A stretch of DNA of 64,000 nucleotides from an uncultured delta proteobacterium (GTDB lineage Bacteria; Desulfobacterota; Binatia; Binatales; Binataceae), in the NCBI GenBank assembly GCA_963724765.1, contig CAVRVY010000003.1, forward strand, positions 128,001 through 192,000, read 5' to 3'. This document shows, piece by piece, positions 11,585 through 53,874 of the stretch. A program made the position numbers and the translations under genes. Numbering within the stretch: the stretch's first letter is position 1; every line of letters starts with the position of its first letter. The notes under the pieces were generated by a model that searched no databases, was not told where the DNA came from, and worked only from the letters and a program-made list of their open reading frames with translations.

Positions 11585-11794
11585 AAGACTCCTGGTCGAA
11601 GGCATGGTGGCTGAGGCCGTTAAGCAGGGCAAGCTCTGGCTCACAACAGGACAAGCCAGCATTCTTGCCGAAGAAATTCCGGCGGGACTTTCACTGACGA
11701 CGCGCGCGCGGACTTCGAGCAATTCTCCGAGAAGTACAAAAACTGATGGACTATGGTGGATGACACAGTCTGCTGCGAACCATTCTCCGCGGGC

Positions 11795-11992
11795 AAATTC
11801 CCTGATCAGCAGGAAAAAACAGGGAATTCCCTCGATTTTAGCCCGAACCTGAGCCTCCGGGCAGGGAAAAGGCCTTGATCCACTGCAGGTTTTTGAACGA
11901 ATTCCCTACTCCAGCGAACAGGGAATTTTCAAAGCCTCACAGGGAATTAAATGGGTGCATCAGGGAATTTCTTGGAGCGGTTTAGGGAAAAC
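11795..11992. repeat. CAGGGAAWW array, direct and inverted, with 21-bp phasing
   Basis: Direct copies at 11820, 11862, 11919, 11940, 11961 and 11983 (TAGGGAAAA); inverted AATTCCCT at 11796 and 11900. Confidence 0.85.
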
Positions 11993-12428
11993 CGTATTCA
12001 AGCTTCTTCGTGGGCGAAGAGTACAGCCCCGAGGGTCTAGACTCCTCCAGCATCACGGGAGGTCCCGCTTCCTGGCTGCCGAAATCTTAACTTACAATTC
12101 GAATCCGATAGGTCACCTGGAAGCATGACGCGAGCGGCATCTACCAGGCAGGAAACCGCGCGCATAGGAAACAGGTTCCCATCTACGGCGTAGAGCCGCC
12201 GAGAGAAGCAATGGCAACACTGGAAGGTCCATGATGCCGAGAAGATTCTTGCTATTCTTCCCATTCCTAATCGGGTGTCGAGCCTTGCACCCCGCACCGT
12301 TTAGGCGGGGTGGATCTTGCAAACGTCCTCGCACCGCCACCGTCTCTCGATTCCGCCAATTTCCCAACCCAAGCCGGTCGATGGTCTGCTAGGTGCCCGT
12401 TGTCCCAAACGATCGATAACGGCAGGAT

Positions 12429-13301
12429 CTATGCTGTGTTTGTCCGCCTCGCTGTTAACTTCCGCGCGCGTCGACGTGCCTGTGCTTCCCGCCAAGCGGC
12501 CCTGATACCACAGGCGTTGCAATAGGCATTTCTGTTCGAATTGGGCCGCCGAGAGGGTGCGAAGAGCTTTCCACAACTGGAGCAGACCGCAATGCCGGCC
12601 GAGCGCGTCACCGCGAGCATGATCTGCATTGCCAGCGCGCCCGGTAAGGGCGGCGCACCGCCGATCCGGATTTCAAAGCGCTTGCGCCGCGGATTGTAAG
12701 AGACCCGCGGGCGCACCTGAAAAAAACGCAGCCACAGTTCCATTCCATAGGCGACGAAGGACGCGGGGTCGCGCCGCGCAGCCCTCAGGCGCGGCGCCGA
12801 AAACAAAAGCTGCGGGTTGAGCCGGGCCAGGGTTAGGTCATCGACTCGGCCCTTGGAGAGCTGGGCCGCCGTGTTGAGCAGCGCGCGGGCGTGGCCTGCA
12901 AGATTGCGCCACCACTGAAGCGCCTCACGCACAGCGGTTTGACCGGCGCCGGTGGTGCAAACGGCCGCAGCGCAGCCCTCGGGACGAAGGCGGTGGCTGG
13001 GATCGCCATGCTCGCAGAAACCGAACCGGCCGTACCGGCGAGCGTAATCGAGAATGCGCTCGGCCGGGGCCTCGTCGAGCTTGACGAATTCGGTAAGCAC
13101 GCCGGCGGCCGCCTCGACTTTGCGAAATTGGAGCACGCGTCTGCCGCGTCTCAAAGTACGTATCGGATAGCGAAAAAGCAGCCATTGACCGTCGAGCTCG
13201 ACCTCAGGGGCAGCGGACCAATTAGGCACCGCTGCTGGGCGATCCACCCGTCCTTCGTCGTCGCCGAGAGCCACCCAGTCCCACCACTCTAGTTTTGTCA
13301 T
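12429..13301 (-). CDS. Hypothetical protein with C-terminal CGNR-like zinc finger
   Basis: CSSCGKLFAPSRRPNSNRNAYCNACG followed by the basic helix AQARRRARK. Confidence 0.65.
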   Translation of the reverse strand: MTKLEWWDWVALGDDEGRVDRPAAVPNWSAAPEVELDGQWLLFRYPIRTLRRGRRVLQFRKVEAAAGVLTEFVKLDEAPAERILDYARRYGRFGFCEHGDPSHRLRPEGCAAAVCTTGAGQTAVREALQWWRNLAGHARALLNTAAQLSKGRVDDLTLARLNPQLLFSAPRLRAARRDPASFVAYGMELWLRFFQVRPRVSYNPRRKRFEIRIGGAPPLPGALAMQIMLAVTRSAGIAVCSSCGKLFAPSRRPNSNRNAYCNACGIRAAWREAQARRRARKLTARRTNTA

Positions 13302-13415
13302 AGTCGAATCATCTTAAAAAATTTCACCGACGAACGCCAAGTCAATAGGATCGCTAAAAGTGCAGCGCGGGCGACCACTTCGTCCGACGAGATTTGGGAG
13401 GGTTGAAACCCACTC

Positions 13416-14792
13416 ATGCAGAAACAAGGCGACAGGCGACTTTCCACAAGCTCAGTAGACCAGGCCCGAGGCCGGGTCCAGGTAACTTATCGTCGGCTTT
13501 CCGAGCTCAGGCTCGATCCCAACAACCCGCGGACACATAGCCAAAAGCAGATCCGCCAAATCGCCCACAGTATCCAAACCTTCGGCTTCAACGTCCCGAT
13601 TTTGGTCGATTCCAAGGGCAAAGTGATCGCCGGTCACGGCCGCGTCATGGCCTGTCAGCAGTTAGGCTGGACCGAGGTTCCAACCATCACTCTCGAGCAT
13701 TTGAGCGAAGCGCAAGCTAAGGCATTCATGATTGCCGATAACCGACTGACCGAGAACTCGACTTGGGACGACCGCCTTCTGGCCGAGCAACTGAAGGAGC
13801 TCTCGGCAATCGAGCTCAACTTCAATCTCGAGGCCATCGGCTTCGAGACCGCTGAGATCGATTTGCGCATCGAGAGTCTGAGGGCGGATAGCGACCAACG
13901 AGAGGATCCCGCGGACCTCCTTACAGCCATACCGGCCGAGCCGCCAGTGAGTCGACCAGGCGATCTCCTTCTGCTAGGCAGGCATCGGGTGTACTGCGGC
14001 AGCGCGCTCGAGCAAGCCTCCTACACCGCCCTGATGAGGGAGGAACAGGGCGCGATGGTGTTCACCGACCCACCGTATAACGTCGCCATCAAGGGCAACG
14101 TTAGCGGTCTCGGCGCCATTCGCCACCGCGACTTCGCGATGGCCTCAGGCGAGATGGACGAGGCTCAATACGCCGCTTTCCTCACCCACGCCTGCTCGCT
14201 GCTTGCCCTCCACAGCGCAGATGGCGCGCTGCACTTCATCTTTATGGATTGGCGGCACATCGGTGAGCTACTTGCGGCGGGTCGGAGCGTGTACGCGGAC
14301 CTGAAGGGCATGTGTGTCTGGGTCAAAAACCATACCGGTATGGGAGCGTTCTATCGCAGCCGCCACGAGCTGGTCTTCGTCTTCAAGCACGGCCGTGGGT
14401 CCCACCGCAACAACGTCCTACTAGGCAAATATGGCCGCGATCGCACCAACGTATGGAGTTACCCGAGCCCTCGCACGCCCAGCGAAGAAGGCAACCTGCT
14501 TGCGTTGCATCCCACGGTGAAGCCGGTGCGGCTGGTCGCCGATGCCATCCTGGACTGCACCGCGCGCGGCGACATCGTGGTCGATGCCTTCCTCGGCAGC
14601 GGCACCACCGTCATCGCCGCCGAACGTGTGGGCCGGCACTGCTACGGACTCGAGCTCGACCCAATCTACGTCGACACGATCGTGAGGCGCTGGCAAGCCT
14701 ATACGGGCGAGGCCGCCCGCGATGCATCAAGCGGGAGATCATTCAACGAGTTGGAAGCCGAGCGAACGGAGGAGGTGCGCAATGTCCGCTGA
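13416..14792 (+). CDS. ParB-N-terminal-domain DNA methyltransferase (N4/N6, beta class)
   Basis: NNPRTHS...IAGHGR...IADNRL (ParB/Srx); FTDPPYN, HPTVKP and DAFLGSGTT. Confidence 0.93.
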   Translation: MQKQGDRRLSTSSVDQARGRVQVTYRRLSELRLDPNNPRTHSQKQIRQIAHSIQTFGFNVPILVDSKGKVIAGHGRVMACQQLGWTEVPTITLEHLSEAQAKAFMIADNRLTENSTWDDRLLAEQLKELSAIELNFNLEAIGFETAEIDLRIESLRADSDQREDPADLLTAIPAEPPVSRPGDLLLLGRHRVYCGSALEQASYTALMREEQGAMVFTDPPYNVAIKGNVSGLGAIRHRDFAMASGEMDEAQYAAFLTHACSLLALHSADGALHFIFMDWRHIGELLAAGRSVYADLKGMCVWVKNHTGMGAFYRSRHELVFVFKHGRGSHRNNVLLGKYGRDRTNVWSYPSPRTPSEEGNLLALHPTVKPVRLVADAILDCTARGDIVVDAFLGSGTTVIAAERVGRHCYGLELDPIYVDTIVRRWQAYTGEAARDASSGRSFNELEAERTEEVRNVR

Positions 14793-15129
14793 AATGGGCT
14801 ACGGGAAGCCGCCGCGGGCGACTCGGTTCCGCAAAGGTCAATCGGGGAACCCCAGGGGCCGGCCGCGCGGCTCAAGAAGTTTCGCGAGCCTGATGGAGGA
14901 GGCGCTCGCCGAGCCGGTAATAATAAATGAGAACGGGCGACGGAAGAAAGCAACAAAGCTGCAAGCGATCGTTAAACAGCTGGTGAATAAAGCTGCTCAA
15001 GGTGATCATCGCTCGATTCAACTTTTGATGGCATTCACTGAGCGACAACAACTGTTAGGCAAAGACGGAAAGCCCATAACAATAGTTGAGCTGCTTTCCG
15101 CGATAGGTCCAATTTCTGATGAAGACTGA
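14782..15129 (+). CDS. DUF5681 protein (terminase small subunit-like)
   Basis: GYGKPPRATRFRKGQSGNPRGRPRG; overlaps both neighbours. Confidence 0.85.
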   Translation: MSAEMGYGKPPRATRFRKGQSGNPRGRPRGSRSFASLMEEALAEPVIINENGRRKKATKLQAIVKQLVNKAAQGDHRSIQLLMAFTERQQLLGKDGKPITIVELLSAIGPISDED

Positions 15130-16741
15130 AAAGCACGAACTCTCCCCTCAACAGAAGACGTTGGCACGTAGGGTGGTCACCGACCCCGTGCTGTTCGGCA
15201 CCAATGTCCTCGGCGCTCAGCTCTGGGAACAACAGATTGAAATACTGCATTCAATCCAGAACTGTCGACGAACCGTCATAAGATCCTGCCATGGCGTGGG
15301 CAAGACTTACGCCTTGGCCGTGGCCGCACTTTGGTGGTTAGCGCGCTACCCTGACGGAATTGTTCTGACTACCTCATCGACCTTCCGCCAGGTCAAAACC
15401 CAGTTGTGGTCAGAGATTCATCGCCTCATTGCGCAGGCGAGGGTTCACTATCCCGAACTCAAAAGTACGGAGCTCAGGCTGCGTGACGACAGCAACTTCG
15501 CTTTGGGTTTCTCGACCGACCGATCTGCAAACTTTCAGGGGTATCATGGCAAGCATGTCCTGATCATCGCGGACGAGGCGCCGGGGATCGAGTCCGGCGT
15601 TTGGGACGCGATTGCGGGTACCATGGCTGGCGGCAAAGTGCATATCGTGATGGCCGGAAATCCCACTCTACCATCGGGTGCCTTCTATGACGCGTTCACG
15701 CGAGAACGGGAACTATGGAATTGTATTACTATCGACGCATTCGACTCGCCGAACTTAAAAGACATCGGGCTCGACGAGCTTCTGCAGATGGATCCAGCGG
15801 AGGGCGGACTCTTGGACCAGAATCCGATGCCTTACCTGGTGACCAAACGCTGGGTTTTCGATCAGTATAGGGCATGGTGGCATGGCGACGAACGCAGCTC
15901 GCCCAACTGGGTCTCGCGCGTGCGCGGCCAATTCCCCGACCAGGCACAGAACGCTCTCGTGAAACTGCGCTGGTTGGAGCGCGCCAAGGAGCGCGTTCTT
16001 CGCACTCCGGTGCAAGATAAGGCGGCCAGCCTGGTAGCCGGAGTGGACGTTGGCGGCGGAGAAGCGGAAACGGTCGTTTATGTCTGCGAGTCCAAGCCGC
16101 ACGACTTCAAGATCATCGCCATGGGGGCGTGGCGCTGCGAGGACACGCGCGGCGACGTGGTCCGGTTCTTGGCCTCGTACCGCGGACGCCTTCGTTCCGT
16201 TCGAGTTGATGCGATCGGGATGGGTCACAACTTTGGCCTGCATCTCAGGGACGAGAGATTTCCGGTCGAGCTGGTCAACGTCGGCATGGCATGTGAGAGT
16301 CGTCCGGAATGGCCCGAGAACGATCCTGCCGGGCGATTCGTGAATCTAAAGGCACAGTACTATCAGGAGCTGGCCGATGCGTTCGAGCGCAACGAGGTAC
16401 AGGGTTTGAGAGACGATGTGACTATAGACCAACTGACCGGCATCTTGTACGAAGTTGATTCTCACGGAAGAATTAAGATCGAAAGCAAGGAAAGCGCCCG
16501 GGCGCGCGGAATTCCCTCGCCCGATCGCGCCGAGGCGCTCATGCTCGCGCTTTGCAAACCGCCGCAGAAATACGAATGGTACTCGATCCGCGATTTTCCA
16601 CGTTTGAGGTCGGGTTCTGCCCAGAGGCTGGGTGATCAATGTGGAGGATTAGCATATATGGGCTTCAGAGAGGTCCCCCATGACCCTGCGGAGGACATAC
16701 CGCTGAGAGGGAGATGGCCGCGCGGCTGGGAGGTATTCTGA
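15119..16741 (+). CDS. Terminase large subunit-like ATPase/nuclease
   Basis: Walker A SCHGVGKT, Walker B LIIADEA, coupling motif GNP; nuclease motifs AGVDVG, VDAIGMG and SPDRAEALMLA. Confidence 0.88.
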   Translation: MKTEKHELSPQQKTLARRVVTDPVLFGTNVLGAQLWEQQIEILHSIQNCRRTVIRSCHGVGKTYALAVAALWWLARYPDGIVLTTSSTFRQVKTQLWSEIHRLIAQARVHYPELKSTELRLRDDSNFALGFSTDRSANFQGYHGKHVLIIADEAPGIESGVWDAIAGTMAGGKVHIVMAGNPTLPSGAFYDAFTRERELWNCITIDAFDSPNLKDIGLDELLQMDPAEGGLLDQNPMPYLVTKRWVFDQYRAWWHGDERSSPNWVSRVRGQFPDQAQNALVKLRWLERAKERVLRTPVQDKAASLVAGVDVGGGEAETVVYVCESKPHDFKIIAMGAWRCEDTRGDVVRFLASYRGRLRSVRVDAIGMGHNFGLHLRDERFPVELVNVGMACESRPEWPENDPAGRFVNLKAQYYQELADAFERNEVQGLRDDVTIDQLTGILYEVDSHGRIKIESKESARARGIPSPDRAEALMLALCKPPQKYEWYSIRDFPRLRSGSAQRLGDQCGGLAYMGFREVPHDPAEDIPLRGRWPRGWEVF

Positions 16742-16975
16742 GATCTGAGTTTGGGCTTGTCTCTACTGAAAACTCCGAAAGCATTGAAAAGTCTGGCGAT
16801 TCACCCTGGCCCGCCGTTGTGTGGGTACGTGGGGAGAACTGTGTTCTCAGAAGAACCGGATTCGTTTGTCGTGAGCCTCCCTTTAGGTATAAATCTTTTC
16901 AAGATCGGAAAGTTATTGCACGTGCCACACAACCGTGTCCGAATCGGACGGCCATAAACCCAACGGAGTTCATTC

Positions 16976-17158
16976 ATGGACGCCTATCTGGATCGTATCG
17001 CTCCTGAGAAATTAACGGTCCTCTGCGCAAGCGGGTTTTTCCTCGACGATAGAAGGCTGACATTTATCGACGAATACGGGGCGGAGCTTTCTATCGAAGA
17101 GGTCGAGGAAAACAACGTACGCTGGCTGAAGCGCCGGATCGGTGAGGTCGGACACTGA
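16976..17158 (+). CDS. Small acidic hypothetical protein
   Basis: 60-aa ORF with GGAG SD upstream. Confidence 0.4.
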   Translation: MDAYLDRIAPEKLTVLCASGFFLDDRRLTFIDEYGAELSIEEVEENNVRWLKRRIGEVGH

Positions 17159-17299
17159 TAGGCTGCTGCCGGAGTCTTTTCAGGAACGCGCAAGCGTTAA
17201 AGCGGCGTGCGTAAAGTCCGCGCGTGGCAAGTCGAACACTCGTCCACATCTACATCACGAACTCGAAGGGAACACGAAATTAGTAATCTGTTTCGACGA

Positions 17300-19112
17300 T
17301 CATTTCGTAACGGGGGCGGTGAGGCCGGCGCCATCCTCGAGTGCTGCTTCATGGTCCAAGCTCGAGCCGAGCCTAAGCACCCGCGTGTGAAATTTTCGGA
17401 GGCTCGGCCGGTGGCCAAGACTGACGACGGTCGTCGGCATCCGCGCGAGCCTCGCATACAGGAGTTCCTCGTTTCCCGGATCGAGCGCGCTGGTCGCTTC
17501 GTCGAGGAACGCATAGCGCGGACGGTTGAACAGAAGCCGCGCGAAAGCTAGCCGCTGCAGCTCGCCGGCGGAAAGCACGTCCACCCAATGCATCTCGGCG
17601 TCCAGTCCGCCGAATCGCGCCGGCAGATCGGCCAGATTCACCTCCTTCAGCGCCTCGAGTTGTTCCTCTTCGGTGGCGTCCTCCGCGCTCGGGTAGCGGA
17701 GCTGATCGCGCAGTGATCCGAGGATCATGTACGGGCGCTGCGGCAGGAACATGATCTGGTCCAGCGGTGGACGCTCGATACGTCCGCTGCCGAAGTCCCA
17801 AAGTCCGGCGACCGCGCGCATCAACGAGGTCTTGCCCACGCCGCTCGGACCCATGACCAGCAGCGCGTCGCCCTCGTTAACCGCCGTTGAAAGCCCGTCG
17901 AGCAGCGTCCGCGACCGATCCGGCGTCATCAGCGTCAGGTTTTTAAGCGCAAGGCGTCCGTCCTCGACCACCTCGATCCGCTCCGCGCCGTCGGGTTCGG
18001 GAGCATCAGTCTTCTCGCATTCTTTCTTGAACGTCGCGAGACGGTTGACCACCGACGCATAGTCAGTGAGGCTTTGGAAACGGTCGATCACCAGTGACAG
18101 AGAGCTTTGAAGCACCGCGAACGCGTAAGCGGCCTGGGTGAATTCACCCAACTTGAAATGCCCGGAAAAGTACGCGCCTGCGAGGACGAAATAAGGCACG
18201 AGATTCGCCGCGTCGTCATAGGATTCGGTGAAGAAGGTGAGATGGCGCTGCCACAGAATCAACAATTTGAAGTTGCGCAGCACGCGCGCAAAGTGGCTGC
18301 TCAACTGACGCGCCTCGTCGCGGGTGCCTTGATAGAGCGCGATCTGTTCGGCGTTGTCGCGTGCGTGCACGAGCGCGAAGCGGTAATCAGCCTCGTAGCG
18401 TTGCTGATCGAAATTGATCAGCACGAGGCGCCTGCCGATTATGACCGTCAGCCAGGTACCGACGGCAGCGTAGCCGACCAAGCACACTGCCAACCCATGA
18501 CGAGATCGACCACAGGATTCCGAAAAACGTTGCGGCGGTGACGAGCGCGCTCAGCATTACCATCGAGTAGGTCAGCGCGCCGGTCGTGAAGCTGTTGATA
18601 TCCTCACTGATTCGCTGGTCGGGATTGTCGACGGAGCGATCGCGCATGATGCGGTAGAGCGCGTTCTTGTGCAAGCTAAGCCGGACGAACCGCTCGGTCA
18701 TCCAGTCGCGCCATTCGATCCCCAGCAGCCCGGTCAGGTAGGGATGAAAAGCTGCGATGGGCACGAAGATAACGATCCATACGACATACAGAAGCATCAA
18801 GTGATAAAAGTGCGCAGCATCCTTGGCCTGCAGCGAGTTCATCACATCGCGCGAGACATAGCTGAAGATGGCTCGCATCCCGGTCGTGCCCAGGCTCAAA
18901 GCCACCACGATCGCTAGTAGCCCGAGAGCCCGGGCCCGCTTTTCGGAGGTCCAGTAGGGCCTCACCAGGCTCCAGAGCCCCTTCCAAAACACACGGTCGA
19001 ACTTGCCCACCGCTGCCTCCGATTCACCCGCAGCAATTCCAGTAGGGGCTTCATAGAACGGCGCCGAGCCGGCGCTTGCGAGGCTGCTGAACCGTCGAAT
19101 GATTCTGCGGAC
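17300..19112 (-). CDS. SbmA/BacA/YddA-like ABC transporter (permease + ATPase); frameshift at ~18495; 5' end abuts an IS
   Basis: DNPDQRISED, EADYRFALV, GPSGVGKT, LSAGELQR and FLDEAT; ORFs 18387-19124 and 17300-18493 join. Confidence 0.85.
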
Positions 19113-43038: not shown

Positions 43039-45534
43039 GTGGCGAAATCCGTTAGAGCGGCGCTTTCCGACACCATAGAAAAGCTCATCGCGCAGTATAG
43101 TTGCGGTCCCGTAAAATTCAGCGGAGCTGACGAGGCCCTATATGAGCGCCATCTCCTTTTCGACAGTGTTACGGACATAAAGGTCGCCGACGCGCGCGAT
43201 CGCTTTGAAGCGATTGCACGATCCGTACGCGACGTGCTTTCCCAGCGTTGGATCCGCACCGAGCAGACGTATGAGAGCAGGAATCCCAAACGTGTCTATT
43301 ATTTGTCGATAGAATTTCTTCTCGGTCGCTCGCTCGCCAACAACGTTCAAAACCTTCTGCTCGACCCTGTGGCGGAGCAATTGATCAAAGAGAAAAATCT
43401 CGATCGGCTGGGTTTGCTGGAGCAGGAACCCGACGCCGGTCTCGGCAATGGAGGCCTCGGCCGGCTCGCTGCTTGCTTCCTTGATTCTATGGCAGCGATG
43501 CAACTCCCAGGAATGGGCTATGGGCTGCGCTACGAATACGGGATGTTCAAGCAATCAATCGACAATGGCTGGCAGCAGGAACGCCCGGACAATTGGCTGC
43601 GTCGCCCGGACCCTTGGGAAGTGGCTCGTCCGCATGAAAGAGTCGAACTGCAGCTCAATTGCTCCATTGAGGTCCGCGGGGGAGCGCTACATCCGGTCAG
43701 CGATCGGCCTTCGACTCTGATCGGGATTCCCTTTGATCGTCCGGTGGTTGGCTACGGCGGCAAGACCATAAACACGCTAAGACTCTGGGCCGCTGCTGCT
43801 CCTGATGAATTCAAGTTTCAGGAATTCAGCCACGGCGATTTCGTCTCTGCCGTGGCAGAGAGGCTGGGAGCGGAATCACTGACTCGAGTGCTGTATCCCG
43901 ACGACTCCACCAGTATGGGGCAGGGCTTGCGCTTTGTCCAGGAGTACTTTCTGGTCGCCTGCTCGCTTGCCGATATTGTGCGACGGTTCCGGCGCGACAA
44001 TCCCGATTGGAGCACGCTTCCTGAGAAGGTCGCCGTCCAACTCAACGACACACATCCGGCAATCGCGGTGCCGGAGTTAATGCGGATATTGCTCGACGAG
44101 GCGAAGCTGGGGTGGGACGAAGCCTGGGACCTGACGGTAAAAGCGCTGGCGTACACAAATCACACGTTGCTGCCCGAAGCGCTCGAAAAATGGCCAGTTG
44201 AGTGGTTTCGGATGCTCATACCGCGCAACCTAGAGATCACATTTGAAATCAATCGGCGATTGCTCGATGACGTTCGTAGCCGCTTTCCGGGTGACGACGG
44301 TCGTGTCTCGAGGATCAGCTTGATCGAGGAAGGCCCGACGAAGCACATACGGATGGCCAACTTGGCCATCGTCGGGTCGCACAGCACTAACGGCGTAGCC
44401 GAGATCCACTCTCAATTACTGCGCACGACGACGGTCAAGGATCTGGCCGAATTGTTTCCCGAACGCTTCAACAACAAGACGAATGGCGTCACGCCCCGGC
44501 GCTGGTTGCTGCTCGCGAATCTGGCCTTGGCCCGCACGATCACAGAGGCGATCGGCGAAGACTGGATTACCGATCTGAGCCAGTTGAGCAGACTTAAGCC
44601 GCTTGCCGCGAACAGAGCCTTTCGCGACAACTTCCGTGAGGCCACTCGTCAGACGAAAGTTCGGTTTGCTGACTGGCTCAAGTCGAAGTTCGGGGTAACG
44701 GTAGATCCGGATTCAATTTTCGATAGCCAGGTTAAACGCATCCACGAATATAAGCGGCAACTTCTGAACGCACTTCGCATCGTGGTGCTCTACAACCGAC
44801 TGCGGGAAGATCCCAAGGCACTGATACAGCCGCGGACCTTTTTCTTCGCAGGGAAAGCGGCGCCAGGCTACCACCTGGCGAAGCTCATCATAAAGTTCAT
44901 TAACAATGTGGCCGATACAATCGACAATGACCCTGTGATTCGAGGTCGAATCAAAGTCCTGTTTGTTCCCGAGTACGACGTTTCACTGGCAGAACGGCTG
45001 ATTCCGGCCAGCGATGTTTCCAATCAGATCTCAACCGCAGGTTACGAAGCCAGCGGCACCAGCAACATGAAGTTCATGATGAATGGAGCTCTGACTATTG
45101 GCACGCGCGACGGAGCGACGATCGAGATGGCGCAGGAAGCGGGCGAGGAAAACCTCTTCCTGTTCGGTCTCACAGCCCAGCAGGTGGCCGACAGCCGAAG
45201 CTGGTACAACCCGCACTGGCACTATGACAACGAACCCGAAACGCGCGCCGCCTTGGACCTGATCTTTTCTGATCACTTCAGCCCTAATGAGCATGGCGTG
45301 TTTGAACCGTTGCGGGACGCCCTTCTCAGGCACGGGGATTATTACATGCACTTGGCAGACCTCAAGTCATATCTCGACGCCGACCGCAGGCTCGTCGACT
45401 TATACGCGGACCGAGAAGAATGGGCACGTCGGGCGATCCTCAACGTGGCGAGCTCAGGCAAGTTCTCAAGCGACAGAACCATTGCAGAGTACGCAAAGGA
45501 CATCTGGAACGTCGAGCCTTGTCCCCTCACATAG
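43039..45534 (+). CDS. glgP: Glycogen/starch phosphorylase
   Basis: GLGNGGLGRLAAC, KRIHEYKRQ and EASGTSNMK. Confidence 0.96.
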   Translation: MAKSVRAALSDTIEKLIAQYSCGPVKFSGADEALYERHLLFDSVTDIKVADARDRFEAIARSVRDVLSQRWIRTEQTYESRNPKRVYYLSIEFLLGRSLANNVQNLLLDPVAEQLIKEKNLDRLGLLEQEPDAGLGNGGLGRLAACFLDSMAAMQLPGMGYGLRYEYGMFKQSIDNGWQQERPDNWLRRPDPWEVARPHERVELQLNCSIEVRGGALHPVSDRPSTLIGIPFDRPVVGYGGKTINTLRLWAAAAPDEFKFQEFSHGDFVSAVAERLGAESLTRVLYPDDSTSMGQGLRFVQEYFLVACSLADIVRRFRRDNPDWSTLPEKVAVQLNDTHPAIAVPELMRILLDEAKLGWDEAWDLTVKALAYTNHTLLPEALEKWPVEWFRMLIPRNLEITFEINRRLLDDVRSRFPGDDGRVSRISLIEEGPTKHIRMANLAIVGSHSTNGVAEIHSQLLRTTTVKDLAELFPERFNNKTNGVTPRRWLLLANLALARTITEAIGEDWITDLSQLSRLKPLAANRAFRDNFREATRQTKVRFADWLKSKFGVTVDPDSIFDSQVKRIHEYKRQLLNALRIVVLYNRLREDPKALIQPRTFFFAGKAAPGYHLAKLIIKFINNVADTIDNDPVIRGRIKVLFVPEYDVSLAERLIPASDVSNQISTAGYEASGTSNMKFMMNGALTIGTRDGATIEMAQEAGEENLFLFGLTAQQVADSRSWYNPHWHYDNEPETRAALDLIFSDHFSPNEHGVFEPLRDALLRHGDYYMHLADLKSYLDADRRLVDLYADREEWARRAILNVASSGKFSSDRTIAEYAKDIWNVEPCPLT

Positions 45535-45571
45535 CCGATTTGACTCGACCACATTCGAAGAGAAACCAATC

Positions 45572-47251
45572 ATGAACGTCAGTCCCAAAGCAGGCAAACC
45601 TGCCGAGCCGGCGATTCTGATCGATGTTCCGAAGCTGGTGGACGCTTACTATGCGGGCCGACCCGATCCATCCGTGACCGCGCAGCGCGTGGTGTTCGGT
45701 ACTTCCGGGCATCGCGGCTGCTCGCTCGAGAATTCCTTCAATGAGGCACACATCCTCGCGATTACTCAGGCGATCTGCCTCTACCGCAAGCAACAGCGCA
45801 TCGACGGGCCGCTGTACATCGGTTTCGACACGCACGCGCTTTCCGAACCCGCTTTCAAGAGTGCATTGGAGGTGCTGGCGGGCAACAGCATCGAAGTGAT
45901 GGTCGATGCCGGGAACGGCTATACACCCACGCCCGTGATCTCGCATGCGATTCTCAGCTACAACCGGGGCCGCCGGCGCGGACTTGCGGATGGCATAGTC
46001 ATCACGCCGTCGCATAATCCGCCGCGATTCGGCGGCTTCAAATACGACCCGCCACACGGCGGTCCTGCTGACACTCACGTGACAACATGGATCGAAGAAC
46101 AGGCTAACGCACTCATTTCGGACCAACTACGCAGCGTCGCGCGGGTACCGATCGAACGACCACGCACGACTCCAATGGTCCATCAGCATGACTATTTAAA
46201 TTCTTATGTGAACGATCTCCCCGCTGTGGTGGACCTTGATGCGATTAGCCACAGCAAGGTTCGCATCGGGGTCGATCCGCTGGGCGGCGCCAGCGTGGCC
46301 TACTGGGATGCCATACGCGATCGCTATGGACTCAACCTAGAGGTCGTCAATCGCGCCGTCGACCCGACGTTCAGGTTCATGACGGTCGATTGGGACGGCC
46401 AGATCCGAATGGACCCTTCATCGGTGTACGCGATGGCGCGCATCGTCGCCCTGAAAGACCGATTCGACGTCGCCTTCGCAAGCGACACCGATGCCGATCG
46501 CCATGGAATCGTGAGCCACAGTCAAGGGCTACTCGATCCGAACCATTATCTTTCGGTTGCGATTTCGTACCTCTTCGCGAATCGTCCGCAGTGGTCCAAA
46601 GAGGTAGCCGTTGGCAAGACCATCGTCAGCAGCGGCATGATCGATCGGGTGGCAGAGGGTTTGAAGCGCCGACTGATCGAAGTGCCGGTGGGATTCAAGT
46701 GGTTCGTCGACGGGCTCATCGATGGCAGTGTCGGATTCTGCGGCGAGGAAAGCTCGGGGGCAACGTTTCTGCGGCGCGACGGTACCGTGTGGACGACGGA
46801 CAAAGACGGAATTGTTCCGAACCTGCTTGCCGCCGAAATCACGGCACGCACCGGCCGCGACCCGGGTGAACACTACCGCAAATTGACGGCTGAATTCGGT
46901 GACCCGCTATACGAGCGACTCGACGCCCCTGCGACATCGGAACAGAAAGCCAGGCTGGCAAAGCTTTCTCCAGAAGCGATTACCGAATCGACGCTGGCGG
47001 GCGAGCCGATCATCGCCAAGCTGACGAACGCGCCCGGCAACCAGGCTCCAATCGGCGGCTTGAAGGTGATTGCTGCTAGCGGCTGGTTCGCGGCGCGTCC
47101 TTCCGGAACGGAGAGCATCTACAAAATCTATGCGGAAAGTTTCAAGGACCGAGATCATCTGAACGCCATCGTCAGCGAAGCTCAGGCAATCGTGAAACGC
47201 GCGTTGGACTCGTCTGAACCAGACCGCGGCTCGCGGGCAGCGCGACAATGA
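45572..47251 (+). CDS. pgm: Phosphoglucomutase (alpha-D-glucose-1,6-bisphosphate-dependent)
   Basis: FGTSGHRG, TPSHNP, DTDADRH, GEES and RPSGTE. Confidence 0.95.
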   Translation: MNVSPKAGKPAEPAILIDVPKLVDAYYAGRPDPSVTAQRVVFGTSGHRGCSLENSFNEAHILAITQAICLYRKQQRIDGPLYIGFDTHALSEPAFKSALEVLAGNSIEVMVDAGNGYTPTPVISHAILSYNRGRRRGLADGIVITPSHNPPRFGGFKYDPPHGGPADTHVTTWIEEQANALISDQLRSVARVPIERPRTTPMVHQHDYLNSYVNDLPAVVDLDAISHSKVRIGVDPLGGASVAYWDAIRDRYGLNLEVVNRAVDPTFRFMTVDWDGQIRMDPSSVYAMARIVALKDRFDVAFASDTDADRHGIVSHSQGLLDPNHYLSVAISYLFANRPQWSKEVAVGKTIVSSGMIDRVAEGLKRRLIEVPVGFKWFVDGLIDGSVGFCGEESSGATFLRRDGTVWTTDKDGIVPNLLAAEITARTGRDPGEHYRKLTAEFGDPLYERLDAPATSEQKARLAKLSPEAITESTLAGEPIIAKLTNAPGNQAPIGGLKVIAASGWFAARPSGTESIYKIYAESFKDRDHLNAIVSEAQAIVKRALDSSEPDRGSRAARQ

Positions 47252-48783
47252 GCAACCAAGACCGGCTTACATCTCTTCCGCCGTTTGCCTCTGACTACCG
47301 TGCCTCAGGCTTGTTGCTGCACATTACGTCACTGCCCTCAGCGTACGGGATCGGCGATGTGGGACCCTCGGCGTTTGCGTGGCTAGACCGTCTCCAAGAA
47401 GCAGGTCAAAGCTGGTGGCAGGCACTGCCTCTCGGCCCCACCGGGTATGGCAACTCTCCGTATCAATCGCTGTCATCCTTCGCCGGCAACGAGCTGCTGG
47501 TCAGCCCAGAGTCTCTCACCGAGGACGGACTGTTGCGAGCCAACGAATACTCTCCTCATTCGTGCTCCCCCGCCATCGACTACGATGTTGTCATTCCGTT
47601 TAAACGCGATCTGCTCGAAACGGCATGGACCAACTTCAAACAGGGGGCCCGCCGGGATCTGCAGGCCGCTTTCGATGAGTTCCGCCACGCCGAAGCGCAT
47701 TGGCTGGACGATTACAGCCTTTTCCGTGCGCTGAAGTTGAAGCACAACGGCGCATATTATCTGGAGTGGCCCGTAGAAGTGGTTCAGCGTGTCCCCGCAG
47801 CACTGGCTCGGGCCCGGGCCGAGTTGTGGGAACGAATCGAGAAGGTCTGCCTTGCTCAGTTCTTGTTATTTCGGCAGGGCGAACGGCTTAAAGAATACGC
47901 GCACGCCAAGGGCGTGCGCCTGATTGGTGACCTGCCCTTTTTCGTTTCGCCGGATTCGAGCGACGTTTGGGCCAACCCCGACTTGTTCGTGCTCGATGAT
48001 CACCACCACCCGCGTTTCGTAGCCGGCGTGCCTCCTGACTACTTCAGCGCCGACGGACAGCTCTGGGGGAATCCCGTGTACGACTGGGACGCGCACCGGC
48101 GGACTGGCTTTCGCTGGTGCATCGATCGGTTGCGGGCCTTGCTGGCGCACGTCAACGCGATTCGCCTGGATCACTTTCGTGCGTTCGCTGCTGCATGGCA
48201 TGTTCCGGCTGGAGCACCCACGGCCAAAGCCGGGCACTGGGCGCCAGGCCCCGGCGCTGAGTTCTTTAACGCGCTACAGAACGAGCTTGGCAACCTTCCA
48301 TTTTTTGCGGAAGACTTGGGAGTGATCACGCCGGACGTGTGCGCATTGCGCGACCAGTTTCAGATCCCTGGAACCCGAGTCCTCCAATTCGCCTTCGACG
48401 GCAACCCAGAAAATCCGCATTTGCCGCAGCACTACATTCCCAACGCGGTCGCGTACACCGGTACTCATGACAACAACACGACGCGCGGCTGGTTTGAAGA
48501 GCTGCCGAGTCAACAGCGGCAGCGGGTGTGGAAATACCTCAACCGATCCGAGGGCGACAGTCGGGAGGTCACGACAGCCTTGATGCAAGCGGTGTGGTCG
48601 TCGGCTGCGGCTTTGGCGATGGCTCCTCTCCAGGATGTCCTCAACTTGGGAAGCGAAGCGCGGATGAACGTGCCCGGCCGTCCCGGAGGTAACTGGCGCT
48701 GGCGCTGCAACGAAGAAATGCTTTCAGGTCCAGCTTTTGAACAGCTGCGCGACCTGTCGAAGGCGACGAACCGATGGAGGTGA
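47248..48783 (+). CDS. malQ: 4-alpha-glucanotransferase
   Basis: GVPPDYFS, RLDHFR, EDLG and TGTHDN. Confidence 0.95.
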   Translation: MSNQDRLTSLPPFASDYRASGLLLHITSLPSAYGIGDVGPSAFAWLDRLQEAGQSWWQALPLGPTGYGNSPYQSLSSFAGNELLVSPESLTEDGLLRANEYSPHSCSPAIDYDVVIPFKRDLLETAWTNFKQGARRDLQAAFDEFRHAEAHWLDDYSLFRALKLKHNGAYYLEWPVEVVQRVPAALARARAELWERIEKVCLAQFLLFRQGERLKEYAHAKGVRLIGDLPFFVSPDSSDVWANPDLFVLDDHHHPRFVAGVPPDYFSADGQLWGNPVYDWDAHRRTGFRWCIDRLRALLAHVNAIRLDHFRAFAAAWHVPAGAPTAKAGHWAPGPGAEFFNALQNELGNLPFFAEDLGVITPDVCALRDQFQIPGTRVLQFAFDGNPENPHLPQHYIPNAVAYTGTHDNNTTRGWFEELPSQQRQRVWKYLNRSEGDSREVTTALMQAVWSSAAALAMAPLQDVLNLGSEARMNVPGRPGGNWRWRCNEEMLSGPAFEQLRDLSKATNRWR

Positions 48784-49886: not shown

Positions 49887-50491
49887 ATGCTGGAAGGCAG
49901 ATTTTTAAGAGAGACTCCCGCGTGGGGCGCGCTGCAGGCGCACTACGAGAAAGTCAAAGATATCCACTTAAGGCAGCTGTTCGCGGACGATCCAGACCGG
50001 GGAGAGCGTTTTACCGTCGAAGGCGCAAACTTGTACCTGGACTACTCCAAGAACCGCATTACCGATGAAACAGTTCGATTGCTCGTGCAGCTCGCCAGGG
50101 AGCGAGGCGTCGCGGAGCGGCGCGACGCGATGTTCCGCGGTGAGAAGATCAATGTCACCGAAAAGCGGGCTGTGTTGCATGTGGCCCTGCGGGCCCCGAA
50201 AGGAGCCTCGATTGTCGTCGACGGCCACAACGTGGTGCCTGAGGTTCATGCCGTGCTGGACAAGATGGCTAACTTCTCCAACCGCATCCGCCGCGGCGAA
50301 TGGAGGGGCCACACCGGCAAGGTCATACGCAACGTTGTCAACATAGGCATCGGCGGCTCCGACCTCGGACCCGTCATGGCGTACGAAGCACTGAGACACT
50401 ATAGCGATCGCTCGATCACGTTCCGCTTTGTTTCCAACGTCGATGGCACTGACTTCTTCGAAGCGACCCGTGACCTCGATCCGGCCGAAAC
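49887..50491 (+). pseudogene. pgi: Glucose-6-phosphate isomerase, 3' end lost at the IS21 left end
   Basis: [24 protein letters not shown] and FVSNVDG; breaks after LDPAET at about 200 aa. Confidence 0.92.
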
Positions 50492-50607
50492 TGAGAGCGC
50501 CAGAGAGAAAATCCCTCACTGAAGCAGCCGGATAGACCGGTTGCACCGGAGTAAAAATCCGGCAGCAATAGCCCATTTGCCGTGGAACGGCAGAGGTGGG
50601 CGGAGGG

Positions 50608-52107
50608 ATGAAGCGGGTGGAACTATACGCGCAGGTTCGACGAGCGGTTTACGTGGAGGGGCTGAGTCGGCGGGAAGCAGCACGGCGCTTTGGGATCGAC
50701 CCGCGGACGGTGGCGAAGATGCTGGCGTTCTCGGTGCCGCCTGGTTATCGACGGAGCCGGCCGCCGGCGCGGCCCAAGCTGGATCCGTTTGTCGGGATTA
50801 TCGACCGGATCTTGGAAGAAGATAAGTTACGCCCAGCCAAGCAGCAGCACACGGCGAAACGGATTTTCGAGCGGCTGCGCGATGAGCATGGGTATGACGG
50901 CGGGATCTCGATCGTAAGGGCTTACGTACACGAGCATCGCCAGCGGCTGCGCGAGATGTTCGTGCCACTGCACCATGATCCTGGACACGCGCAAGTCGAC
51001 TTCGGTGAAGCGCTCGCGGTAATCGCAGGTGAGGAGTGCAAGATCCACTTCTTCGCGATGGACTTGCCGCACAGCGATGCTTGTTTGGTGCAGGCCTATC
51101 CGGCGGAGAGCACCGAGGCCTTCTGCGAAGGTCACAACGTCAGCTTCGAGTTCTTTGGCGGAGTGCCGCGTTCGATCCTCTACGACAACACCAAGCTGGC
51201 GGTGGCGCGCATACTCGGAGATGGCACCCGTAAGCGCACCAAGGTCTTCAGTGAGCTGCAGTCCCACTCTCTGTTCGCCGATCGCTTCGGGCGGCCGGGC
51301 AAGGGTAACGATAAGGGCAAGGTCGAGGGGTTGGTCGGCTATGCGCGGCGCAACTTCATGGTGCCGATCCCGCGCGCACTCAGCTTCGCTGAGCTAAATG
51401 AGCAGTTGCTGGAGTGCTGCCGCCGTCGTTTGAAGGATCGGCTACGTGGTCATGATGACACCATCGGCGAGCGGCTGGTGAAGGACCGTGAGGCTCTCCT
51501 GCCGCTGCCGCCCGCACCCTATGATGCGTGCGAAAAGAGGCCCGCCTGGGTCAGCTCGTTGTCGCTGGTGCGCTACCGCGGCAACAACTACTCAGTGCCA
51601 AGCGCATACGGTCACCGCGAGGTGCTGGTCCGAGGTTACGTCCACGAAGTTGTGATCGCCTGTGCAACCGAGGAGATCGCCCGGCACGCTCGTTCCTACG
51701 AGCGCGAGGACTTCGTGTTCAACCCACTGCACTACCTGGCCCTGCTGGAGCGGAAGATCGGCGCGCTGGACCAGGCCGCGCCGCTGGTCGGCTGGGAACT
51801 ACCTGAAGAGTTCGCAACGCTGCGCCGGCTGCTCGAAGCGCGCCTGCGCAAGCCCGGTAAGCGGGAGTTCGTTCAGGTCCTGCGCTTGCTCGAGGTGTTC
51901 GGTCTCGAAGACGTGGTCGCAGGAGTTCGAGAAGCGATCGATCGCGGAGTGATTAGCTTCGACGCGGTCAAGCATCTCGTGCTGTGCCGCATCGAACGGC
52001 GCCCACCGCGACTCGACCTGAAGATCTATCCCTATCTGCCACAGGCGACTGTGAGCACCACCTCGGCCCGATCCTACCTGAGCCTGATGGCGGGAGCAGG
52101 TTCATGA
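50608..52107 (+). CDS. istA: IS21 transposase
   Basis: AQVDFG, LYDNTK and KGKVE DDE motifs. Confidence 0.95.
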   Translation: MKRVELYAQVRRAVYVEGLSRREAARRFGIDPRTVAKMLAFSVPPGYRRSRPPARPKLDPFVGIIDRILEEDKLRPAKQQHTAKRIFERLRDEHGYDGGISIVRAYVHEHRQRLREMFVPLHHDPGHAQVDFGEALAVIAGEECKIHFFAMDLPHSDACLVQAYPAESTEAFCEGHNVSFEFFGGVPRSILYDNTKLAVARILGDGTRKRTKVFSELQSHSLFADRFGRPGKGNDKGKVEGLVGYARRNFMVPIPRALSFAELNEQLLECCRRRLKDRLRGHDDTIGERLVKDREALLPLPPAPYDACEKRPAWVSSLSLVRYRGNNYSVPSAYGHREVLVRGYVHEVVIACATEEIARHARSYEREDFVFNPLHYLALLERKIGALDQAAPLVGWELPEEFATLRRLLEARLRKPGKREFVQVLRLLEVFGLEDVVAGVREAIDRGVISFDAVKHLVLCRIERRPPRLDLKIYPYLPQATVSTTSARSYLSLMAGAGS

Positions 52108-52880
52108 GCGATACGCCCCAGGTTCTGCTCACCCATTACTTGAAAACACTCAGATTGCCCACCTTTTTGCGCGAGTATGACAAGTTGGCGCGCCAATGCG
52201 CCGGCGAGGATGTCGACTATCCTCGCTACCTGTTGCGCCTGGCCGAGCTGGAGATGATCGAACGGGAACGCCGGACCATCGAGCGGCGAATCAAGGAAGC
52301 CAGGTTCCCGGCGGTCAAAAGTCTCGATAGCTTCGAATTCGCAGCGCTCCCCTCGCTCAACAAGACGCTAGTGCTGGAACTGGCCCGCTCGGAGTATATC
52401 GCGCGCCGCGAGAACATCATCGCGGTCGGCAACAGTGGCACCGGCAAGACTCATGTGGCTCTCGGGCTAGGTCTGGCCGCCTGCCAGAAGGGTCTCGCGG
52501 TCGGCTTCACCACCGCTGCCGCTTTGGTCAACGAGCTGCATGAAGCGCATGATGAGAAGCGTCTGCTGCGCCTCCAACGTCAACTCGCCGGCTACAAGCT
52601 TCTGATCGTGGATGAACTCGGCTACGTCCCGCTCTCCCCAACTGGTGCAGAGTTACTGTTCGAAGTCTTCAGCCAGCGCTACGAGCGCGGCTCGATCATC
52701 GTTACCAGCAATCTGCCGTTCGATGAGTGGACCAGCGTGTTCGGCTCCGAGCGCTTAACCGGCGCACTGCTTGATCGTCTTACCCACCACGTTCACATCC
52801 TCGAGATGAACGGTGACAGCTTCAGGCTCAAACACAGCAAGCGCCGCATCAGTGACGATCAACCGCGAGAATCCGGCTAA
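52104..52880 (+). CDS. istB: IS21 helper ATPase
   Basis: GNSGTGKTH, IVDELGY and LLDRLTHH. Confidence 0.95.
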   Translation: MSDTPQVLLTHYLKTLRLPTFLREYDKLARQCAGEDVDYPRYLLRLAELEMIERERRTIERRIKEARFPAVKSLDSFEFAALPSLNKTLVLELARSEYIARRENIIAVGNSGTGKTHVALGLGLAACQKGLAVGFTTAAALVNELHEAHDEKRLLRLQRQLAGYKLLIVDELGYVPLSPTGAELLFEVFSQRYERGSIIVTSNLPFDEWTSVFGSERLTGALLDRLTHHVHILEMNGDSFRLKHSKRRISDDQPRESG

Positions 52881-53044
52881 CACCACTAACTCCAACCCAC
52901 AAAGCTAGATCTTTTCGACACAGTAGCGAGGGGGTGATCCCCCTCGCGCTCCCCCTGCCAGACGTCAACCTACCTGCCATCGGCTTATCCAAATGATGGA
53001 CTTTTGCTCTGGCGCGCTGATGTACTTTCACTCCGGTGTTGACA

Positions 53045-53810
53045 CCGCTGTATGCGCAGGGTGCCGTTAGGCGTGGACGGCGCTATCGGTACTACGTATC
53101 ACGAGCGCTGGTCAGAGGTTCCACAGCGGAGGGACAACGTGGATGGCGGGTACCAGGGCCCGAACTGGACCGAGCGGTCGCGATCGCCGCACGAAGCATT
53201 CTGGACGACAAGCCGGCTATTCTCGCTGCTCTGCGGAGCGAGGGAATTGAAGATATCGATGTCAATCAGGTTTTCAAGTTGGCGACTGAATGGAGGGAAC
53301 GTCTTCTGTCTGAGATCGAATGTTCAACGGTTCTGGTTGAATTAGTGGAAAGGGCAACATTGACGGACGAGGGCATTCGACTCGGGCTGAAAATATCCGT
53401 GCCATGCAGCGGGCCAGGCGGCGCCGCGCTGCACAAGGTGCTCCGTCTGTTTCGGTTCGTTCCGCTGAAGGTGAAGAGACGTGGCGTCGAGATGCGGCTC
53501 ATCATCAACGGAGGCGATGAGCCTAGGAGACCCGATCCTGCGCTGCTGAAGGCATTCGCACGGGCTCGAGGATGGTTCGAGGAATTGGCATCGGGCCGCG
53601 TCCGTTCGCTCGTCGAAATCGCGCGCCGCGAAGGACTCGCGAAACGCTACGTCGCCCGCCTGACTAAGCTGGCATTCGTATCGCCGGCGTTCGTGGGACG
53701 CGATCGCAGACGGCAATGTGTCGCCTGGAACCAACCTGCAAATGCTGATGGACGGTCGCGTTGCTCTCCCCCTTTGCTGGAGCGATCAGGAACACCTTTT
53801 CAGCGACTAA
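53045..53810 (+). pseudogene. 3' half of a second large serine recombinase (frameshift ~53696)
   Basis: PLYAQGAVRRGRRYRYYVSRALVRG...GWRVPGPELDRAV matches PLYVQGAVKGTRHYRYYVSRGLVRG...GWRVSAPELERAV of the LSR at 1-1327; corrected frame ends LPLCWSDQEHLFSD*. Confidence 0.85.
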
Positions 53811-53827
53811 ATAGTTCGAGCAGGACC

Positions 53828-53874
53828 GATTCGTAATCAGCAGATCGTCGGTTCGAATCCGACGGGTGGCTCCA
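53828..53874 (+). other. 3' half of tRNA-Thr(CGT), att-like island boundary
   Basis: GATTCGTAATCAGCAGATCGTCGGTTCGAATCCGACGGGTGGCTCCA: anticodon loop, T-arm GTCGG/CCGAC and CCA; no 5' acceptor or D arm upstream. Confidence 0.85.

Follow-up and report, generated by a model that had tools for sequence, protein, structure and literature searches.

Previously described phage satellites either redirect the terminase of a helper phage with a small terminase subunit (TerS) or supply capsid genes of their own together with a large terminase subunit (TerL). Phage-inducible chromosomal islands (PICIs), according to PMC10085698, carry a tyrosine integrase, a regulator, a primase-replicase and only TerS from the terminase, by which helper packaging is redirected. 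In the same paper, the capsid-forming PICIs (cfPICIs) carry terL and terS plus the genes for the capsid, portal-side adaptor and connector, with 11 core components (PMC10085698). Tycheposons (bioRxiv 10.1101/2020.12.28.424599) are tRNA-linked elements, some of which have terS or a capsid gene and are presumed to hijack capsids, and a minority of which carry large serine recombinases (LSRs). Here we describe a unit of different composition, found in a 64-kb stretch of DNA (the window; G000:C3:128001-192000) on contig C3 of an uncultured member of the soil family Binataceae, whose genome (G000) comprises 5.4 Mb in four contigs with 62% GC. The window contains an operon encoding a DNA methyltransferase, a small DUF5681 protein and a TerL homologue, and this operon belongs to a discrete cassette of 4.6-5 kb, which recurs with an LSR-type dyad site, a repeat array, a divergent regulator-like gene and the three genes in the order methylase, small adaptor, TerL.

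The cassette resembles PICIs and the Staphylococcus aureus pathogenicity islands (SaPIs), as these are portrayed in PMC10085698, in being small and integrated, with a regulator-like gene, a putative small terminase of its own and no full set of capsid genes, but it differs from PICIs by the presence of TerL and a methylase, by its link to LSRs, and by the lack of any primase or replicase found in the cassette or the LSR unit. With cfPICIs it shares a terL encoded together with a putative terS (PMC10085698), whereas none of the capsid, head-tail adaptor or connector families was found in the window or in the scanned cassette loci. Because the defining features of PICIs and cfPICIs were looked for and not found, we set the cassette apart from both and file it with satellites or defective phages. 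Tycheposons differ in carrying replication genes, in lacking TerL and in belonging to a different phylum. The late operon of temperate phages (methylase, TerS, TerL, portal) has the same gene order and a homologous TerL in cultured phages, but the cassette lacks the portal and everything after it and ends within 26 bp of the TerL stop codon. Phages often place a ParB-methylase at the start of the late operon. The cassette itself goes back to the first part of a phage late operon. No description of this gene set was found in the literature searched, the coverage of which excluded subscription journals; in that literature, DUF5681 appears in one paper, as a phage virion protein.

The cassette in the window consists of the following features, of which the last three form the operon:

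11713..11796, + strand: conserved dyad site of 85 bp (nhmmer, E 9.7e-15)
11796..11990, no strand assigned: repeat array of the CAGGGAATT type; counting both strands, it has 7 AGGGAAT cores, of which three are spaced by 21 bp
12429..13301, - strand: divergent gene for a CGNR-like protein of 290 aa, which has a basic tail and, at its C terminus, a CxxC...CxxC zinc ribbon (alignment)
13416..14792, + strand: ParB_N plus N6/N4 DNA methyltransferase, 458 aa (Pfam; PHROG phrog_498, 1.3e-122; PADLOC MTase_II, 2.2e-84)
14722..15129, + strand: DUF5681 small protein, 135 aa as listed (Pfam, 85.9 bits)
15119..16741, + strand: TerL homologue, 540 aa, ATPase and RNase-H-like nuclease with catalytic residues kept (PHROG, phage TerLs, profile)

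An earlier interpretation of the window made from its letters alone (the sequence-only reading) had proposed an overlapping, apparently intact operon at 13416-16741 with a phased repeat array to its left, and this description stands: the three open reading frames (ORFs) overlap and are open, and five CAGGGAATT copies lie within 11796-11969, three of them 21 bp apart. The DPPY and FxGSG motifs are readable in the translation of the methylase. As listed, the DUF5681 ORF has its first 71 nt (14722-14792) in common with the methylase ORF; a start at 14782 would leave 11 nt and may be the true one, because the homologue in locus L057 begins at the residue equivalent to M21. The 540-aa ORF scored 19.7 bits against Pfam Terminase_6N, below the cut-off of 22, and a search of the Protein Data Bank with the single sequence gave no match. 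However, it matches PHROG phrog_2 ('terminase large subunit') at 1.2e-30 and shows 26-32% identity, along 85-91% of its length, to large terminases of cultured phages, and a profile of 25 TerL sequences matches the solved large-terminase nuclease 8dkr (5.8e-11) and Sf6 gp2 (1.4e-6). By these three matches the ORF is a terminase large subunit, despite the Pfam score below cut-off. The Walker and nuclease motifs, which the sequence-only reading had regarded as kept, are indeed so: K62 of Walker A, D152/E153 of Walker B and D310 and D469 of the nuclease are invariant in the 25 aligned relatives, and D364 is at least 90% conserved among them. Cultured phages gave no tblastn match with the small protein. 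Among defence models (PADLOC), only generic methyltransferase models were matched, and TerL and the small protein had no meaningful match.

The role of the small protein as a TerS-like adaptor is inferred from how its parts vary with their partners. Cassettes contain either of two types of small protein, and when paired with a TerL of the window type, the two types share only their last ~28 residues, with the consensus ..GKDGKP[IL]T[IL]V.LL..[IV]GPI.DED. Conversely, where DUF5681 accompanies a TerL of the Terminase_6N/6C type (L088, with an intact TerL of 517 aa, and L081, with a split TerL), the domain is kept and the tail is different. A model of the complex of TerL and the small protein scored 0.65 versus 0.01 for the best of three controls; on a calibration that holds only roughly, a score at this mark or above was obtained for 116 of 157 solved complexes and for 2 of 215 mismatched pairs. 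Between runs, at least 32% of contacts were in common, and the pLDDT (predicted local distance difference test) of the partner was at least 55. The modelled interface places the tail of the small protein (residues 117-131) on residues 7-30, 75-78 and 107-122 of TerL, which supports a predicted docking of the small protein on the TerL N terminus via its tail. The AlphaFold2 model of the DUF5681 protein itself has a pLDDT of 75.7.

The recurrence of the cassette carries the argument that it is a unit. The TerL relatives of the window copy come from metagenome-assembled genomes (MAGs) of the Binataceae, with matches in 40 of the 165 genomes of the family (one of the 40 is flagged as unpublished) and in 16 of its 30 genera, up to six per genome, many being truncated or containing stop codons. 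A phylum-wide sample had a match in 7 of 301 genomes, and loci were found in public MAGs (12) and in IMG/VR (3). The protein collection searched contained 443 TerL clusters at E<=1e-10, of which the best 120 are 464-581 aa long, nearly all above 500 aa. The source genome has two more TerL homologues, with 66% and 37% identity, and the 66% copy again lies 3' of a methylase and a small ORF, without a portal gene after it. We clustered the ORFs of 37 loci and the window (38 sources; five of the 37 loci duplicate others) and found the TerL family in 33 of the 38 sources and the methylase and small-protein families in 25 each. The gene order was always methylase, small protein, TerL, and the flanks were unrelated. 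This architecture is not confined to the Binataceae, because a Sphingobium megaplasmid has methylase, hypothetical protein and terminase followed by metabolic genes, and a Bradyrhizobium plasmid has methylase and DUF5681 followed by a recombinase. The Sphingobium TerL may be of another lineage, because its close relatives are on plasmids different from those matched by the window TerL.

The sequence-only reading had called for synteny searches of TerL without portal and capsid genes, and we scanned with Pfam the 123 ORFs of at least 150 aa within 7.5 kb downstream of TerL in 25 non-redundant loci (L007 and L076 have no ORF of that size there). Matches to Phage_portal and prohead protease occurred in 2 of the 25 loci only, L066 and L067, whose TerLs have 45% and 44% aligned identity to that of the window (48% and 50% over matched segments) and which are without the methylase and small genes. 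No portal was found within 7.5 kb downstream in any of the 12 core-clade loci scanned; L007 is a 13th locus of that clade. In a maximum-likelihood tree, the TerLs of the 14 core cassettes group together with 100/100 support, and L066 and L067 fall outside this clade. Also outside are the cassette-linked L068, L070 and L075 and the tyrosine-integrase-linked L006, L071 and L072. These last three (L006 is G000:C4:1247878-1249203) form a TerL clade of 37-42% identity near tyrosine integrases and without a portal, with Prim-Pol in L071, and may be another type of capsid-less island bearing TerL. Seven unannotated ORFs lie downstream of TerL in L074 (28-32% identity), which may be a phage. Other downstream neighbours are insertion sequences (ISs), a group II intron, and restriction-modification (R-M), TIR, metabolic and LSR genes. 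Directly 3' of the cassette in L013 (12548-14606) are a 5-hydroxymethyldeoxyuridine DNA kinase gene (HMUDK_hel, 3.6e-110) and a MazG/MazG_C gene, which are DNA hypermodification genes of phage type.

The boundaries of the unit were drawn from L007 and L008, two paralogues in one MAG with 86% DNA identity, which are alike from 1 bp before the dyad site to 26 bp past the TerL stop. No other cassette pair is alike further than this, except one that shares a downstream gene. Because homology ends there, the unit measures 4.6-5 kb and the window copy is complete, from 11713 to ~16757. Selection on TerL, the second check called for by the sequence-only reading, is purifying, with ω of 0.1-0.2 and no sign of relaxation. 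Pairwise NG86 estimates of ω for TerL are 0.225 for L007/L008 (dS 0.30), 0.145 for L007/L010 (dS 0.89) and 0.106 for the window/L057 (dS 1.5, near saturation), and those for the methylase and the small protein range over 0.07-0.24. By these estimates, the cassette is under purifying selection, and is maintained rather than decaying.

The dyad site (..GACTnnnTGGYGGATGAcGCAGTCTgcTGCGAACC.., with AGACT...AGTCT symmetry around TGGCGGATGA) was found by nhmmer in 15 cassette loci, 245-1773 bp upstream of the methylase and on the same strand. It is also present near the broken or partial cassettes L009, L018 and L068, and in L011 it lies 6.4 kb upstream. Its sequence is similar to that of a tRNA-Ser 3' end in reverse complement, with TGGCGGA identical and the T-loop TTCGAACC seen as TGCGAACC, and ARAGORN detected no real tRNA gene at any cassette. 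In alignments, the left arm of the dyad site of every cassette resembles the last ~45 bp of LSR units. A second att-like site downstream of TerL was not found, apart from one half-site, inverted, in L057. The dyad site may be a fossil junction, a decoy attB at which LSR units are captured, or the attP of a composite element of 8 kb.

The repeat array follows the dyad site directly. The five exact copies of CAGGGAATT in the window all fall within 174 bp (11796-11969), and 0.45 copies would be expected in the whole window. AGGGAAT arrays accompany cassettes with the ParB-methylase and DUF5681 (seven cores in the window, six in L088, three in L065 and two in L057), and GGTTGAC arrays accompany the other methylase and a 175-aa small protein at 11 loci with an intact methylase and also at L009 and L018, where the methylase is fragmented. 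The two kinds of array are never mixed. The two methylase/small-protein types are ~24% identical to each other, and the TerLs paired with them are 59-68% identical to that of the window. Cassettes exchange modules, with two methylase/small-protein types and two TerL types. The array is a candidate pac-like recognition site.

The divergent gene varies within one type of array. The 290-aa protein of the window had no Pfam match, and none of its 58 homologues has a family; its positional equivalent in L008 gave a weak zf-CGNR match (17.2 bits, under the cut-off). A gene resembling helix-turn-helix (HTH) repressors takes its place in L020, L057, L065 and L081, with a Phage_CI_repr HTH in the first three, HTH_3 only in L081 and a weak Peptidase_S24 match in L020 only. 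The zinc-ribbon protein is a candidate regulator of the operon. The idea that the 290-aa gene encodes a replication initiator, for which the array would supply the iterons, was dropped in view of the CGNR-like zinc ribbon and of the HTH genes that replace it elsewhere. Within the AGGGAAT type alone, the divergent gene encodes a zinc ribbon in the window and L088 and a Phage_CI_repr HTH in L057 and L065, and the array lies past the 3' end of the divergent gene, outside the 115-bp divergent promoter gap. Because the regulator family varies within one array type and the array lies outside the promoter gap, the co-variation leads us to think that the array would be recognised by the small protein (or by the N-terminal domain of the methylase) and would not be an operator.

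Serine recombinases are linked with the cassettes, and the left part of the window contains the following parts of them:

1..2608, no strand assigned: right-hand 2.6 kb of a 3.2-kb LSR unit, C3:127397-130608 (Pfam, copy comparison)
2-1327, - strand: LSR, the gene running off the window (Resolvase 132.6 bits, Recombinase 59.6 bits)
1314-1808, - strand: DUF2924 gene (Pfam)
1878-2441, + strand: unknown 187-aa gene of the LSR unit (ORF)
9929..10063, + strand: DUF2924 remnant, residues ~72-122 of 159 (tblastn, E 2.8e-8)

The LSR unit of the window is 99.4% identical over 3214 bp to C2:55310-58522, a copy that adjoins tRNA-Ser(cga) and provides the final 7 nt of this gene, TCCGCCA. Two other copies of the LSR are found at 0.7 kb and 3.2 kb from a tRNA-Ser gene, and the source genome contains 8 full-length LSR paralogues and several fragments. 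The unit of LSR, DUF2924 and the 187-aa gene, at window 1-2608 and at C2:55310-58606, looks like a minimal self-mobile serine-recombinase element. A DUF2924 gene immediately upstream of an LSR gene is also described in phage WO (PMC10299305), but here the pair and an unknown gene form a stand-alone 3.2-kb unit in multiple copies, one of them at a tRNA-Ser gene. The end of the LSR unit of the window coincides with the dyad site of a second cassette, also complete, which is situated immediately left of the window at C3:122544-127015 (L088 14545-19015) and has a zinc-ribbon gene, a ParB-methylase of 492 aa, a DUF5681 protein of 158 aa and a TerL of 517 aa of the Terminase_6N/6C type; downstream of this TerL are IS, cytochrome and Tad pilus genes and no portal gene. 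In L088, L057 and L020, where the tRNA-Ser-targeting unit of 3.2 kb abuts the dyad site, the 3' end of the LSR gene lies 140-280 bp from that site, and LSR genes or fragments in other orientations lie a few kb from the cassette in L004, L009, L019, L021 and L075, of which L009, L019 and L075 also match the Resolvase and Recombinase domains. The DUF2924 remnant lies 1.65 kb upstream of the dyad site of the window, and no LSR remnant was found between the two; it is probably the rest of a decayed LSR unit that was once upstream of the window cassette.

To the right of the cassette the window is broken up by ISs, and the features that bear on the extent of the element are these:

16757..16822, + strand: first ~65 bp of a multi-copy IS, truncated (rve-type transposase in intact copies; repeat comparison)
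16822..19030, no strand assigned: duplicated block with a split gene for an SbmA/BacA-type ABC transporter, not part of the cassette (96% identical to C4:1580589-1582780; Pfam)
50491..53045, + strand: IS21 (istA/istB), with a truncated PGI gene on its left and a truncated LSR gene on its right (Pfam)
53027..53836, + strand: C-terminal ~half of an LSR gene, an unrelated remnant (sequence comparison)

The 5' end of the first IS starts 16 bp past the TerL stop and is cut at 16822. The genome has ~10 copies of this IS, and its 5' sequence immediately precedes a transposase ORF at L077 and L080. This truncated IS marks the disrupted right flank of the cassette. We rejected an apparent empty-site allele in G427:C6, in which the left repeat segment and the post-TerL segment are 308 bp apart, because the post-TerL segment is the 5' end of the multi-copy IS. 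The Pfam scan of the window was made on 63 ORFs, those only. From left to right it gives LSR, DUF2924, IS and metabolic fragments, the ParB_N+N6_N4 methyltransferase, DUF5681 and the 540-aa ORF, then the split ABC transporter gene, an rve-type IS and a metabolic block with genes for GH65, isoamylase, ABC-2 efflux, phosphoketolase, glycogen phosphorylase, PGM, GH77 and transaldolase, and then the truncated PGI gene, IS21, a 266-aa ORF and ars and pst genes. As the sequence-only reading had stated, there are no portal, capsid, tail, primase or conjugation genes, these families being without a match among the 63 ORFs.

That reading had gone further and proposed one integrative element spanning 11750-53874, with ~35 kb of metabolic cargo and with the LSR at 53 kb as its integrase. 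Its individual sightings of recombinase genes are borne out: the left LSR with Resolvase and Recombinase domains next to DUF2924, the DUF2924 remnant, and the 3' half of an LSR at the far right on the same strand as the operon, where 53027-53795(+), like the 266-aa ORF, aligns with residues ~302-568 of full-length LSRs (562-573 aa). The fragment is 40-47% identical to five full-length query LSRs and up to 52% identical to other copies in the genome. What is supported of the proposal is the recurrent capsid-less set of methylase, DUF5681 and TerL, which is linked to LSRs with DUF2924. The span and the 35-kb cargo are unsupported, as is the 53-kb LSR as the integrase; it is a fragment cut by a multi-copy IS21 and one of many LSR fragments. 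A single ~42-kb element bounded by the 53-kb LSR is now highly improbable and largely refuted. In its favour are the orientation of the LSR fragment, a GC content of the region slightly below the genome mean and the patchy occurrence of parts of the cargo within the genus. Against this, an IS end lies 16 bp past the TerL stop with the duplicated block following from 16822, IS21 separates the truncated PGI gene from the truncated LSR gene, site-linked LSRs elsewhere end 140-280 bp from the site, and cassette copies share no sequence downstream of TerL. Moreover, the window at 35.7-47.2 kb is syntenic, with 78-87% identity, with 436-453 kb of contig C14 of a congener (G426), on which no TerL match was reported, the sole TerL match of that genome being broken and on another contig. 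The metabolic 35 kb and the 53-kb LSR fragment are part of an IS-scrambled accessory region and lie outside the element. The IS21 has seven further copies of 100% identity in the genome and was apparently active recently. The sequence-only reading had named three outcomes that would speak against it. Two of these did not occur, because ω is 0.1-0.2 and portal genes are rare downstream of TerL; the third, an origin of the operon and of the 53-kb LSR in unrelated insertions, is probable, because the 42-kb span and the integrase role of the 53-kb LSR are unsupported.

Some observations in the flanking DNA stand apart from the cassette. The ~100 bp at 7743-7846 of the window match dozens of places in every genome of the genus with 80-88% identity and look like a dispersed repeat of the REP (repetitive extragenic palindrome) or MITE (miniature inverted-repeat transposable element) kind. 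An arsenic-resistance cluster (ACR3, ArsR-LMWP, GAPDH-like, MFS) lies beside LSR genes or fragments in three genomes (window 53027-59988, L009 12434-19376 and G435:C1:135458-141761), and a further ars cluster of the source genome, at C1:493237-498223, is 82-85% identical. The phosphoketolase in window 39798-48783 is an accessory paralogue, 80-84% identical to copies in only two congeners; the other phosphoketolase copy of the genome (C4:1107560-1109791) is 70% identical to that of the window, and most congeners match the window copy at ~70%.

For the cassette itself, the most likely reading, quite possible if short of probable, is that of a satellite-like module for packaging that depends on a helper. 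In this reading the small protein would act as TerS, its N-terminal domain reading the type-specific pac-like array and its conserved C-terminal tail recruiting TerL. TerL would then cut the DNA and translocate it into the procapsids of an unrelated phage, the methylase would modify the DNA for survival in the next host, and an LSR, adjacent or in trans, would integrate it via the dyad site. Several observations weigh against this mechanism. The complex model was built on custom alignments, and the membership of DUF5681 among TerS proteins stays inferred because its fold matched nothing informative and no solved small terminase, with no Foldseek match at E<=0.001 and a best VIA-align Z of 4.2. 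The N-terminal domain of the methylase co-varies with the array likewise and could equally read it. The dyad site is intact beside the cassettes, where integration through it would give split attL and attR, and three different arrangements of LSR and cassette occur. Neither the cassette nor the LSR unit yielded a replication gene, and many TerL copies are broken, as decaying DNA would also show. The source genome has no HK97-type portal or capsid gene (PF04860, PF05065, PF05133 and PF05136 absent), and in contigs from four runs over 9500-17500, which are short (200-600 bp), no excision or circle joint was found.

The same contigs show only two small skips in that interval, each in single low-depth contigs; the public runs that contain the stretch number 20, none of them on record as RNA. 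PF06074 is present elsewhere in the genome, and the only portal genes found are of the Mu type, with a gp27 gene, because of which no resident helper was identified. The Mu-like prophage pieces (G000:C2:271874-273043, G000:C1:461664-462143 and ~C1:466994-469346, the last being L090 14995-17347) comprise portal genes, a Mu gp27 homologue and then a 511-aa ORF. The portal, protease and other large downstream ORFs of L066, L067 and L074 had no tblastn match in the source genome.

Other explanations have to be weighed against the packaging module. Ordinary decay of a prophage, in which the left end of a late operon was left over after deletion of the structural genes and lost its function, is quite unlikely in our view. 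The order methylase, small protein, TerL is that expected at the start of a phage late operon, the TerLs of L066 and L067 are followed by portal and prohead-protease matches, many copies are truncated or interrupted by stop codons, and the window copy is flanked by IS debris, all as decay would have it. Yet decay would hardly leave ω at 0.1-0.2 in all three genes over dS of 0.3-1.5 with invariant catalytic residues, nor would it make independent copies end alike, within 26 bp of the TerL stop, keep the architecture while modules are swapped, preserve a conserved site and array together with the genes, and leave no portal downstream in the 12 core-clade loci scanned. A repurposed terminase is an unlikely alternative as well. 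It would serve either in a defence of the R-M or abortive-infection kind, with the methylase marking self and TerS/TerL cutting unmarked or phage DNA, or in processing the unit's own DNA for excision or replication. The joining of a methylase and a nuclease-ATPase in one operon, the TIR, type I R-M, Mrr and REase-ARP neighbours at some loci, and the lack of capsid genes in the window and of HK97-type portal and capsid genes in the genome are consistent with such a role, but the PADLOC matches are confined to generic methyltransferase models, with none for TerL or the small protein, the ATPase motifs of TerL and the adaptor tail show the conservation typical of packaging motors, and a type-specific cis array beside the genes fits recognition of self better than of foreign DNA.

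A device for lateral transduction, akin to gene transfer agents, would package from the array in situ into the adjacent chromosome and move accessory genes, for example the metabolic genes right of TerL, in helper capsids. The array lies beside an integration hot spot, the cassettes sit in accessory, IS-rich regions, no replication gene was found, and the dyad site is unsplit, as if excision were outside the cycle; the flanks, however, differ completely between copies, and we doubt this explanation to the same degree as a repurposed terminase. The packaging-module reading can also be taken one step further, to non-autonomous 5-kb packaging cassettes made of site, array, switch, methylase and complete terminase, which would rely on an LSR in trans and on foreign procapsids and would possibly act as in-situ engines of lateral transduction. 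We consider this extension rather unlikely; a start of packaging in situ may follow because the array sits at an unsplit integration site.

If the reading of the cassette as a helper-dependent packaging module is true, a 5-kb unit with a full terminase, a methylase and a matching cis array, without structural or replication genes and under lasting selection throughout a bacterial family, would amount to a new minimal way of hitch-hiking in capsids. DUF5681, a family with 14,555 cluster representatives at E<=0.001, would then gain a testable role as a TerS-like adaptor, and the natural swaps of modules, of the array with the N-terminal domain and of the tail with the TerL type, predict which parts would bind what.

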